DNA of 60,497 nucleotides from Salinivirgaceae bacterium (GTDB taxonomy: Bacteria > Bacteroidota > Bacteroidia > Bacteroidales > SZUA-534), in contig JAEINW010000005.1 of NCBI GenBank assembly GCA_016342715.1, positions 1 through 60,497 on the forward strand, written 5' to 3'. The notes below the pieces were generated by a model. The model had not been told where the DNA came from and did no database searches. It saw only the letters and a list, made by a program, of their open reading frames with translations. The translations under genes and the position numbers were made by a program. Of the stretch, positions 56,722 through 59,568 are shown in pieces (the stretch's first letter is position 1; the number at the start of each line of letters is the position of its first letter).

Positions 56722-56876
56722 ATAATATTTTTTAATTTGCTTACGAAAAATATAAAATTTCCACGCAAAGATCGCAATGATTTAACGCAAAAAACGCAAA
56801 GAAATAAATAATTCTTTGCGTTTTTTTTGAATTTTATTTTTTGAGCTTTGTTGGTATAGCTTTTATTTTATCAATT

Positions 56877-57057
56877 CCCAGCTCCCGCACTAATGACTGA
56901 TTAAAAAAACGAAGCTCGTGCGCATGTCCTCACGCGTTCGTTGTAAACAAAAGAAATTAAAATAAGATATAAGCCTAGCAAAAATGTTAGGCTTTTTTTT
57001 AATAAAGTTAGCCCTTTAGTTATTAATTTGACCACACGAGAGGACTCGTGCGGCAGC
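56877..57057. repeat. 181-bp REPIN-like element, copy 1
   Basis: Direct repeat of 58001-58181 (3 mismatches); two inverted REP hairpins with TCCT loops and an internal terminator-like hairpin. Confidence 0.9.
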
Positions 57058-57097
57058 AGCGCAATCGCGCACTAGAGGGACGGTAGCGGAGAAGGAG

Positions 57098-57443
57098 TAG
57101 ACCTTTGTCTAAAGCAAGAAAATATGAAAAGTGGAGCTGTGGAGCTTTCTCCATTGTAAGAAAGAACGAAAGGTGAAGGCATGGATATTTGCCCATTGCA
57201 TCGGAATGACAAAGAAAGGCATGGAGATTTGTCCAAAGTAAGAAAGGATGACCGGTGGACTCGTGGAGATTTGTCCAAAGCAAGAAAGGACGAAAAGTGA
57301 AGGTATGGAGATTTGTCCATTGCATAGGAATGACAAAGAAAGACATGGAGATTTGTCCAAAGTAAGAAAGGACGACCGGTGGACTCGTGGAGTTTTGTCT
57401 AAAGCAAGTAAAAACTGAAAGTGGCGGTGTGAAAGTACCTCCA
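57098..57443. repeat. Degenerate 40/42-bp tandem array (8 units plus a partial ninth)
   Basis: Core TGGAGATTTGTCCA-like at 57098, 57140, 57182, 57222, 57264, 57306, 57346, 57388, 57430. Confidence 0.88.
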
Positions 57444-57515
57444 TGGCTTGAAAATTCCAACAGAGTAATTGAGGGGGTTTGTACCTGCTAAAAAAATACA
57501 AGTGTAGACATTGTA

Positions 57516-57546
57516 CCCCTGCTGGCGCGAGCTTTCAGCTCGTGTC
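57516..57546. repeat. REP copy immediately 3' of the transposase
   Basis: CCCCTGCTGGCGCGAGC-TTTCA-GCTCGTG, same GCT-nnn-hairpin layout as the REPs in the 181-bp element. Confidence 0.65.
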
Positions 57547-57616
57547 CAATTATTTATAGCTCATCAATTTTTATTACTCCGTTACCATCAGTAAAATTGG
57601 AAGCGCTACTATAGTT

Positions 57617-57641
57617 ACCTTCGGTGAGCTCGTAAACTCGG
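57617..57641 (-). mobile_element. 25-nt mini-insertion with AA duplication (in frame)
   Basis: TGG-AA[CCGAGTTTACGAGCTCACCGAAGGT]AA-CTAT; removal restores HWNYSSA. Confidence 0.7.
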
Positions 57642-57825
57642 TTCCAGTGGTGAGGCTCCAAAACAAAACCAGATTCCACTGGATTGTAATGTATATAATC
57701 CAATTTTTGCTGAATTACATCAATGCTCCATAATTCAATCGGTTTATTGTGTTGTTGCCAAAACTGTCGCTTTTTAACATTACTATTCTTTCTACCTGCC
57801 CTTTCCATCATCCAAAGTAACCATT

Positions 57826-57854
57826 ATTCGCAAAGCTCATGAGGGCTAAAGCCG
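57826..57854 (-). mobile_element. 29-nt mini-insertion with AA duplication (frameshifting)
   Basis: AAAG-AA[CGGCTTTAGCCCTCATGAGCTTTGCGAAT]AA-TGG; removal restores SRKEWLLWMM. Confidence 0.75.
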
Positions 57855-58000
57855 TTCTTTTCTACTTTCTTGTGGATTCTCTTCAATCAGGCTTTGAAGT
57901 TTTTTGAAGTATGCGTCTTGAATTCACCTAATAATTTACTTGGGTTATTATTAAAATCTTTAAATATTAAGTGAACATGATTTGGTAAAATACAATAGGC

Positions 58001-58181
58001 CCCAGCTCCCGCACTAATGACTGATTAAAAAAACGAAGCTCGTGCGCGTGTCCTCACGCGTTCGTTGTAAACAAAAGAAATTAAAATAAGATATAAGCCT
58101 AGCAAAAATGTTAGGCTTTTTTTTAATAAAGTTAGCCGTTTAGTTATTAATGTGACCACACGAGAGGACTCGTGCGGCAGC
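58001..58181. repeat. 181-bp REPIN-like element, copy 2
   Basis: Direct repeat of 56877-57057; abuts and replaces the 5' part of the transposase. Confidence 0.9.
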
Positions 58182-58233
58182 GGGGGGTAAAGTTAAACAA
58201 TTGAGAATTTAAAAGTCCCAGTAAAAATTATCT

Positions 58234-59568
58234 TCAATGTTTTTTTATTTTATTTATTGTCTGTATAATTAACCATAAATTATTATAATCAACTTCATCA
58301 AATCTATCCCATACTTCTTTTGTTTTATTTTCTTGAGAATAATAAAAGTTATAATAATTAAAATAAATCCTTAAACCGAAATCATCAAAATCATAACCAT
58401 GCTTAGCAAAAATCATATTAGCTAATAATTTCAATTCGTAAGTTGTTAAACTTACCATATCATTAGCAAGCAACAATTTATTTGAAAATAATTTAAAATA
58501 TAAAAGCTCTAGCTCTGAATTTGGCTTATAAGCATACTTATAAAACTTATCGTTTAGTTTTACTTTAAAATAAATATTCTGAGTTTTTTTATTGCTTTCA
58601 TCATACCCAATTAACTTATATTTATTTTTACTTGAAGGAGCTAGTATTTCTTTGAATATCGTTGTATTTGCTATTTCCAATTTATCTTTATCAACAACAC
58701 AAGAAAACCTACTGTCTGCCAGTTTCTTTAAGGTATGTATAAACAACTTAGAATCATCTATACTAGAATGCATATAAAAAAAATTATACTCCAAGTTATT
58801 TACTCCTTTAAAGTTATATGTAATATCTTCTAGCTTATTCTTTTCAATATCATATAGGAAATAACTAAGGCTAGAATAGCCCCCTGCCCATTCTCCAAAT
58901 TCTAATATGTATTTATCTTCAAATAATCTATACCCTGACACAAATTCCTGTTCTGAATCTAACATATCTGACATTTGAAACAGAATATTAGTTTCATTTT
59001 TAGATAAATTAACTGATGAAATTGATTTATCCTTTTCGTTGAAATAATAAAAAATTGTATCTGCGTAGTAAAAAATACCATAAATAACATCTACAGGTGA
59101 CTTACTAACTTTACCCTTTAAAACTAGAGAATCTGATAGTTGATAAAAATAAGTAGAATCTTTACTTCCACTACAGAAAAATAAATTTCTATTATCAATA
59201 TACAATTTGTAAACACCCCCTTTAACAAGTTCTGGCTCCAAAGCATCAAGAATTACGTAATCAATAAATCTATTTGAATTCTCAATATTCTGTTTGAAGA
59301 CTTTTAAAGAAACAGAATCAATATGATACAAAAAACGAACGTTTTCATTAATTTCATCAACATTAATACCTATGCTAAAATCAAAAGATTTAATAAGGAA
59401 AGTGTCTATTAATTGCTTTTCTTCTGACTTTAATTCAATATCTACAACCGTATCACTTAGAATAATAAACTCCTTATTAGGAGCGACCTCTTTCGTTTTA
59501 GTTTGTTTAATAGAACATTCACAAAATAATAATGCCACTATAATAAAAAATAAATATCTTGTTTGCAT
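58234..59568 (-). CDS. Exported/lipoprotein with C-terminal YARHG domain; candidate immunity protein
   Basis: N-terminal signal with Cys; ELKLLANMIFAKHGYDF...YF...FY YARHG-like motif; starts 2 nt after the upstream toxin-like ORF. Confidence 0.7.
   Translation of the reverse strand: MQTRYLFFIIVALLFCECSIKQTKTKEVAPNKEFIILSDTVVDIELKSEEKQLIDTFLIKSFDFSIGINVDEINENVRFLYHIDSVSLKVFKQNIENSNRFIDYVILDALEPELVKGGVYKLYIDNRNLFFCSGSKDSTYFYQLSDSLVLKGKVSKSPVDVIYGIFYYADTIFYYFNEKDKSISSVNLSKNETNILFQMSDMLDSEQEFVSGYRLFEDKYILEFGEWAGGYSSLSYFLYDIEKNKLEDITYNFKGVNNLEYNFFYMHSSIDDSKLFIHTLKKLADSRFSCVVDKDKLEIANTTIFKEILAPSSKNKYKLIGYDESNKKTQNIYFKVKLNDKFYKYAYKPNSELELLYFKLFSNKLLLANDMVSLTTYELKLLANMIFAKHGYDFDDFGLRIYFNYYNFYYSQENKTKEVWDRFDEVDYNNLWLIIQTINKIKKH

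Follow-up and report, generated by a model that had tools for sequence, protein, structure and literature searches.

The window analyzed here (the whole stretch of 60,497 nt, which is contig C278 of a Salinivirgaceae bacterium assembly; this genome, denoted G000, comprises 5.54 Mb in 358 contigs with 32.8% G+C) contains the remnant of a RAYT-like transposase gene interrupted by two inserts of 25 and 29 nt. The locus raises the question of what such short inserts are, and how two of them could come to lie within 240 nt of each other in one gene. A preliminary description, made from the letters of the window alone, read both as insertions sharing one layout and assigned them to a family of structure-defined micro-elements, possibly moved by an enzyme of the HUH type. 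Our analysis confirms that both inserts are genuine copies of a micro-element family, whose existence is established by its grammar, by covariation in its hairpin, by pairs of filled and empty sites, and by its distribution.

Two inserts in the remnant of a RAYT-like gene

Both inserts are read on the minus strand (Table 1). Insert 1 has the layout C-C-GAGTT(TACG)AGCTC-A-C-C(GAA)G-G-T, with GGAA before it and AA after it. Together with one AA it makes 27 nt, stays in frame and adds the residues RVYELTEGN. Insert 2, with the layout C-GGC(TTTA)GCC-CTC-ATGAGC(TTT)GCGAAT between AAGAA and AA, makes 31 nt together with one AA, which shifts the frame. Thus, AA on both sides and GAA in front, as given in the preliminary description, are seen for both inserts.

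Alignment with homologues of the gene bears out that both segments are insertions. In a tblastn comparison with 11 loci from related genomes, a clean gap of nine residues stands opposite insert 1 in five of the six alignments shown (locus L005 is aligned otherwise), and L002, L003, L004 and L011 read ...ESRKEWL without a break at the site of insert 2. Moreover, insert 1 is absent from all 80 metagenome homologues (58-68% identical), 78 of them with nine gap columns and two with eight opposite NRVYELTEGN. Insert 2 is absent from 76 of the 77 metagenome homologues that match the upstream piece, where the E codon of SRKE is directly followed by the W codon of WLLWMM; the remaining one is offset by -2, and three of the 80 have no upstream match.

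Table 1. Features at and around the RAYT gene remnant (window positions)
Feature	Position	Strand	Basis or remark
Insert 1, type-A micro-element, 25 nt (CCGAG...AAGGT)	57641..57617 (57615..57643 with AA on each side)	minus	sequence and homologue gaps
Insert 2, micro-element, 29 nt	57854..57826 (57824..57856 with AA on each side)	minus	sequence and homologue gaps
RAYT-like (HUH Y1) transposase gene remnant	57557..58000	minus	translated motifs and tblastn homologues
REP-type hairpin of the RAYT gene itself, CGAGCT-GAA-AGCTCG, inside GGACACGAGCTGAAAGCTCGCGCCAGCA	57528..57542	minus	sequence; directly 3' of the stop codon
Hairpin-rich repeat of 181 nt, right copy	58001..58181	plus	abuts the RAYT gene and takes the place of its 5' part

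Neither insert stands alone in the genome. Near-identical copies of insert 1 are present on contigs C54 and C39, a close copy is found in locus L087, and relatives occur on a dozen contigs. Insert 2 is a unique pairing of two modules, each of which is found elsewhere, namely GGCTTTAGCC (20 copies) and ATGAGC-TTT-GCGAAT (nine close copies). These data support the view that inserts 1 and 2 are two module combinations of one family. No Rfam family matches either insert, the only hits being weak chance ones elsewhere within positions 56800-58300.

Grammar, distribution and insertion sites of the family

The grammar of the family is AA|C-[variable part]-CTC-[mini-hairpin]-AA. The constant part consists of a 5' C (often CCGA), the CTC, a mini-hairpin that opens with A and closes with T, and the AA that comes after it. 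The mini-hairpin is of one of two types: type a, A-N-C(GAA)G-N'-T, and type b, ATGASS(3-4 nt)SSGAAT, with two G-A mismatches. The filler between the 5' C and CTC is variable, ranging from TTCT, the commonest one with 28 copies, to GC-rich hairpins.

In G000 there are 120 grammar-compliant copies of 23-35 nt (54 with type a, 66 with type b) and six further type-a sites that are unpaired, compared to three compliant and five unpaired ones in the control, for which the genome was reversed without complementing it. In particular, 38 of the 42 genomic sites with CTC and A-N-CGAAG-N'-T are Watson-Crick at N/N' and then continue with AA; for the same hairpin motif without CTC (746 sites) the respective values are 26% and 11%. 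The agreement of the two inserts in this grammar goes far beyond chance. Sorted by their flanks, the 115 copies that have a left border form 43 groups. Independent insertions are hence much less numerous than the copies, many of which were multiplied together with their host repeat. Arrays are head-to-tail on a single strand, with 26-nt units in G000 and a spacing of 40-46 nt in the related genomes G044 and G042. The type-b arrays (26-nt units; C5:20437-20489, C30 and C12) and the arrays of mixed units resemble the mosaics formed by bacterial interspersed mosaic elements (BIMEs).

Covariation shows that it is the structure of the mini-hairpin, not its sequence, that is kept. Among 35 distinct type-A 29-mers from G000 and other loci, 29 have a Watson-Crick pair at N/N', each of the four pair types being represented (A-T 12, C-G 7, T-A 5, G-C 5), and the paired fraction over all eight pairs of these 29-mers is 0.88, compared to 0.11-0.24 when the partners are slid by one or two positions. 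Both S/S pairs of type b are Watson-Crick in all 66 copies, and the type-b stem ATGACC...GGGAAT of G060 is changed on both sides. The preliminary claim of a family defined by structure rather than sequence is borne out in this respect. It had misread the register of the first hairpin of insert 1: CGAG(TTTA)CGAG is a direct repeat, and the real pairing is GAGTT/AGCTC in GAGTT(TACG)AGCTC, with five pairs, one of them G-T, which uses the CTC of the supposed linker.

The type-a structure corresponds to a known mini-hairpin motif in which a C-G pair closes a G..A loop: its core CGAAG is found in AGCGAAGCT, ACCGAAGGT, AACGAAGTT and ATCGAAGAT, and type b often contains GCGTTAGC or GCGATAGC. The oligonucleotide d(GCGAAGC) melts at 76.5 C; CCGAAGG, GCGTTAGC and GCGATAGC are mini-hairpins too, the latter two melting near 70 C; and this stability is a property of DNA (PMC13037366). 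All of these motifs occur as such in the micro-elements. The melting data drawn on here do not cover variants with A-T or T-A as the second pair.

The family is patchily distributed. A 14-mer signature is rich in five of 61 relatives (G000 39 matches, G044 15, G060 13, G048 12, G042 10), and a 16-mer signature of the 3' part is matched 285 times, in 52 of the 301 Bacteroidales genomes, compared to five times in the control, with 0 to 69 matches per genome (69 in G217, the richest, and 26 in G000). The pattern search suggested in the preliminary description has thus yielded copies in both this genome and related ones. A scan of all prokaryotes with the 16-mer gives many chance matches; it serves here to estimate the Watson-Crick fraction and to supply examples, and no taxonomic counts are drawn from it. 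Among the 121 matches listed, many of them from records titled Bacteroidota, 75 are Watson-Crick (25% expected). At least 35 loci (35 of 120 among those listed) have the full AACCGA...AGCTCA-hairpin-TAA layout, including records titled Bacteroidales, Muribaculaceae, Rikenellaceae, Microscilla, Crocinitomicaceae, Sphingobacteriaceae and Lentimicrobium. The family is widespread in Bacteroidales, with look-alike copies in other Bacteroidota.

Paralogous sites speak for mobility. For 37 of the 70 candidate copies, removal of the element and one AA (25, 27, 28 or 32 nt) yields a gap-free match to a paralogous empty site, with filled/empty identity of up to 100% over 60-70 nt (for example, C3:10380-10408 and C103:7335-7394). 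In G044 one host hairpin is present in both a filled and an empty version (loci L031 and L039, respectively). A search for sequencing runs over positions 57300-58300 of the window, in which filled and empty alleles might show, gave none. Insertion is always 3' of AA and in a single orientation relative to the asymmetric AA/TT. The base preceding AA at 20 curated independent sites is G in 14, C in four and T in two. Four of these 20 sites lie between arms of at least 5 bp, three of them with arms of 7-8 bp, compared to 5.6% of 20,000 control AA sites, which fits a liking for the loops of pre-existing hairpins.

Several hosts of this kind can be named. The hairpin GCGGCAT..ATGCCGC of a repetitive extragenic palindrome (REP), just 3' of a RAYT gene, holds elements at the same loop position (..CAA|) both in L084, from a metagenome-assembled genome of Muribaculaceae, and in genome G300, the occupants belonging to two different subfamilies. 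At C11:285-740 of G000 there is a truncated IS200-like tnpA gene, whose end hairpin CTGCAAT-TYC-ATTGCAG is the commonest type-A host in the genome; the micro-elements in it lie on the strand opposite tnpA and occupy this hairpin as guests. Loci L031, L043, L048 and L051, from G044 and G042, that is, from two different families, have one long palindromic host repeat in common whose interior holds the same pair of micro-elements, which suggests horizontal spread of the larger repeat. A different kind of segment is seen in one host repeat, where contigs C286, C209, C250 and C319 differ from C2 and C10 in the presence of a hairpin segment of about 25 nt, TGCCTGCCCCGATTTTTTATCGGG, by GAGCTC; it has no AA border and may be a second kind of micro-insertion.

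As to the genomic location, judged from open frames across the emptied site rather than by gene prediction, 113 of the 115 copies in G000 lie outside any gene-like frame, the exceptions being the two in the RAYT pseudogene. Where a long frame runs across a site, as three do, the site falls in its first 21 residues, ahead of the probable start codon, and no transposase family recurs among the 215 open frames of at least 120 aa within 1.5 kb of copies. Of the two interpretations offered initially, survival only in dispensable DNA fits these data better than targeted inactivation of mobile DNA, since the copies look intergenic apart from the pseudogene.

Possible mode of movement and competing explanations

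The inserts are best read as non-autonomous mobile repeats of Bacteroidales, of about 22-35 nt, that are moved as single strands by an HUH-type enzyme, a reading to which we give somewhat better than even odds (about 0.55). The element would move as single-stranded DNA. An HUH-type enzyme (Y1, RAYT- or IS200-like) would recognize CTC and the mini-hairpin and cut after AA at both sides, and the strand would be rejoined after an AA in exposed single-stranded DNA. The AA that ends each copy offers the next one a target immediately behind it, and head-to-tail arrays arise in this way. The dead RAYT gene would then have been hit twice as dispensable DNA beside hairpin repeats, not as an aimed-at target. 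We infer single-strand transfer and the HUH class of the enzyme from the fixed orientation relative to AA, the lack of inverted ends, the DNA-type mini-hairpins, the hairpin-loop targets and the right end that recreates the target, all of which favor such transfer over a transposase with a DDE active site. In this part the preliminary suggestion agrees with the features of the family; no Y1 or HUH gene is physically linked to it in the loci scanned.

Several observations weigh against this reading. The right-hand AA may be either a duplicate or a required part of the element. DNA folding with ViennaRNA gives -0.5 and -1.1 kcal/mol for the inserts (z +0.87 and +0.86), not above shuffled sequences on either strand, by a model that covers neither GAA mini-hairpins nor sheared G-A pairs. 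Since folding shows no special stability, the hairpins rest on covariation and on the published mini-hairpin chemistry. The first module beats shuffles (p <= 0.05, perfect-stem test) in just four of 34 distinct variants, and the commonest type in G000 has TTCT in this place, that is, no first hairpin at all. An obligatory first hairpin is thereby ruled out, and of the two mini-hairpins originally described the first is dispensable.

The search for the enzyme likewise gives a mixed picture. A RAYT of the L006 type is present in 16 of 23 genomes with at least four matches and in 69 of 278 others (odds ratio 6.9, p = 2e-5), a statistic that ignores relatedness and general repeat load. No micro-element is found within about 1.5 kb at the 11 genome loci of the RAYT clade of the window (0/11) or at 80 metagenome loci of this clade (0/80; 191,580 nt). 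The loci of nine of the 13 other Y1_Tnp matches in G000 (L013-L020 and L022) hold none either, nor do the seven Y1_Tnp loci of G217. Neither of the two richest genomes has an intact RAYT of the clade in question (in G000 the pseudogene is the only member, and G217 gives one weak match, 3e-14), and G153, with five element matches, has no Y1_Tnp match at E <= 0.001. In three cases (the window, L084 and G300) an element and a RAYT gene lie close together, and a possible explanation is that the loops of REP hairpins make good targets.

In a more far-reaching form, offered tentatively and doubtful in our own estimate, the micro-elements, at 22-29 nt, would rank with the smallest mobile DNA elements on record and be spread throughout Bacteroidota. 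Their only conserved feature would be CTC with an extraordinarily stable 3-bp DNA mini-hairpin of GCGAAGC type, read by a single-strand transposase, possibly a RAYT, that cuts after AA and prefers hairpin loops.

Among the alternatives, the one that survives best, while still being improbable, is that the elements are signals useful to the host, such as priming or single-strand initiation sites, terminators or protein-binding mini-hairpins, spread by recombination or selection rather than by transposition, with the pseudogene copies as by-products. The copies are almost all intergenic and adjoin ordinary genes, the family is old and widespread, and the CCGAAGG mini-hairpin is part of the primase recognition site, a priming signal, of plasmid RSF1010 (PMC13037366). 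This explanation does not account for exact insertions in coding sequence, for precise filled/empty pairs inside unrelated host repeats, or for a distribution within one order that ranges from no match to dozens per genome. Use by the host after insertion could coexist with mobility.

A little less probable is that the elements are the cognate REPs of the interrupted RAYT clade, so that a classical REPtron would be hopping its repeats locally. In its favor, one RAYT remnant has been hit twice over 240 nt, in a 5.5-Mb genome where the 115 copies make up 43 flank groups, and element-rich genomes are enriched for the RAYT clade as described above. Moreover, the first hairpin of type A, GAGCT..AGCTC, resembles the REP stem of the clade, CGAGCT..AGCTCG, and REP insertions in RAYT genes, in frame, are known for subclass 2.4 (PMC6006769). 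Still, the REP of this clade (CGAGCT-NNN-AGCTCG) is a repeat distinct from the micro-elements. It flanks the RAYT gene in the window and its homologues in G044 (one inverted copy upstream and three downstream) and G057, and it is present in just five of 61 related genomes. The homologous loci, both genomic and metagenomic, are devoid of micro-elements; G057 has the gene and the REP, yet a single element match, which is unpaired, and G042, G048 and G060 have elements without the clade REP.

It is unlikely that the elements are MITEs, miniature transposons of the cut-and-paste kind, with a DDE transposase that would duplicate AA as a 2-bp target. Such an origin is suggested by the AA that flanks nearly every copy on both sides and by filled and empty sites differing by the element and one AA. 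However, terminal inverted repeats are absent from all types (5' ends CCGAG.., CGGC.. and CTTCT.., compared to 3' ends ..GAAGNT and ..GCGAAT), no larger parent element with such ends is seen, and 22-29 nt is too short for two transposase-binding ends. The uniform orientation relative to the asymmetric AA/TT is not explained by duplication alone, and the one clear copy with a 3' flank other than AA is bordered by AA to its left and by TT to its right.

Least likely is a device of the host or of a rival element directed at mobile genes to inactivate them. The double hit in one transposase gene would suit it, as would the copies in the IS200-like end hairpin and in REP hairpins beside RAYT genes. 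But nearly all copies lie outside gene-like frames with no recurring transposase in the neighborhood; insert 1 keeps the frame, so that inactivation need not follow; other events have truncated and frameshifted the gene as well; and the hits in ends of mobile elements are explained by the preference for hairpin loops.

Two further candidates were rejected. A serine recombinase with AA as the crossover dinucleotide would give AA at both junctions and a fixed orientation, but a double-stranded circle of 25 bp cannot form. Excision footprints are inconsistent with the recurrence of the complete grammar at many sites and with the lack of a larger element having these ends.

Known systems and the surroundings of the locus

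Among known systems, the family comes closest to REPs and BIMEs, which are probably mobilized by RAYT (TnpA-REP, HUH Y1) enzymes. As in their case, the micro-elements are short (20-40 nt), hairpin-bearing, high-copy and extragenic, have a constant short motif at the hairpin foot and lack inverted ends; they form mosaics with other repeats and are sometimes found in palindromes and RAYT genes (REPs have been described within palindromes and within genes; Di Nocera et al. 2013, PMC3733652). The motif at the foot is CTC, in contrast to the REP tag GT[AG]G or CGTC, and the hairpin is a 3-bp GAA mini-hairpin or a stem with G-A mismatches, compared to REP stems of 7-20 bp. REPs form inverted doublets (as in REPINs, pairs of REPs, and in BIMEs), an arrangement not seen for the micro-elements, which are head-to-tail. 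Unlike for REPs, exact insertion sites of single units after (G)AA can be read. In the loci scanned no RAYT gene is flanked by micro-elements in the manner of a REPtron, except where copies lie inside another REP (L084 and G300). Genes of RAYT subclass 2.6 are flanked by atypical, tag-less, weak secondary structures (PMC6006769), and the micro-elements may overlap with these. The family, which has neither the tag nor a REPtron yet works like REPs, is classed here as a variant of the REP kind.

IS200/IS605 elements and their miniature derivatives, palindrome-associated transposable elements (PATEs), which TnpA (Y1) moves as single strands, share with the micro-elements asymmetric hairpin ends and insertion in one orientation 3' of a short specific sequence. 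As in IS200/IS605, the right end resembles the target and single-stranded DNA is the likely substrate, and insertion may need no true duplication. Compared to PATEs the micro-elements are about ten times smaller, and their left hairpin is dispensable. No similarity is found between the micro-elements and the ends of the resident IS200-like copies, as judged for the Y1 genes scanned in G000.

The small dispersed repeats (SDRs) of Nostoc and related cyanobacteria, reportedly described by Elhai et al. in 2008 (Genome Res 18:1484), are of 21-27 nt and mobile-looking. They are similar in being about 25 nt long, in part hairpin-forming, nested in other repeats and without a known mechanism. They belong to another phylum, and the AA rule, the core of CTC and mini-hairpin, and the modularity are not known to be described for them.

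With the mini-hairpin DNA of Hirao and co-workers (d(GCGAAGC) and d(GCGNNAGC)) the correspondence is exact in one case, the type-a variant with a G-C pair being GCGAAGC itself; that motif is a structural one from phage and plasmid priming sites and not a mobile element (PMC13037366). The literature search turned up nothing specific for the micro-element family and no link between a mobile element and the mini-hairpin motif, the string "transpos" having no occurrences in PMC13037366.

The spread of REP-type repeats is still largely inferred, insertions of single units with exact borders being rarely visible. The micro-element family offers dozens of exact filled and empty sites and a simple (G)AA target rule, often in a hairpin loop. 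Its recognition core of about 14 nt makes a compact system for the biochemistry of single-strand DNA transposition. If a single-strand transposase indeed reads the mini-hairpin, the question of how REP-like repeats move becomes testable with short oligonucleotides. The family also matters for annotation: when not recognized, in-frame copies of 27 nt inside genes mimic odd protein insertions, and copies that split or extend other repeats mimic new repeat families.

The RAYT remnant itself retains the readable motifs LPNHVHL, FWQQ, YIHYNPV and YSSA, and matches Pfam Y1_Tnp (PF01797) with 19.4 bits (a 45-aa piece) and 21.7 bits, the cut-off being 23. Its motifs appear to fit subclass 2.6 of Bacteroidetes RAYTs, which is characterized by NH[LIV]H, WQ, YIH[QN]NP and an SS tail (Quentin et al. 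2018, PMC6006769). The close homologues are full-length genes of about 185-195 aa. The remnant lacks its 5' part, where the 181-nt repeat stands instead; a frameshift in an A-run (TSK|K) runs into TGA, and the gene is additionally interrupted by the two inserts, at the positions initially given for them. No second copy of this RAYT is found elsewhere in G000 in a genome-wide look.

A second copy of the 181-nt repeat, 98% identical and in direct orientation, is located at 56877-57057, and a third one is on contig C107; the loop of the hairpin CACGAG-TCCT-CTCGTG of this repeat is occupied by a micro-element on contigs C84, C232 and C4. Between the two direct copies in the window lie the RAYT remnant, its REP and a tandem array. 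This array (57092-57463), which sits between the left 181-nt repeat and the remnant and is unique in the genome, is built of about 2.6-3 units of 124 nt, which are 60-85% alike and show a sub-period of 42 nt.

The same A-run (TSK|K; about 57900-57915 on the minus strand of the window, and about 1440-1460 in L002) is frameshifted both in the gene of the window and in the G044 homologue, with opposite shifts, one A short in the window and one A extra in G044, and the G057 homologue is intact there. This double frameshift could reflect a slippage-prone site, a sequencing error or programmed slippage.

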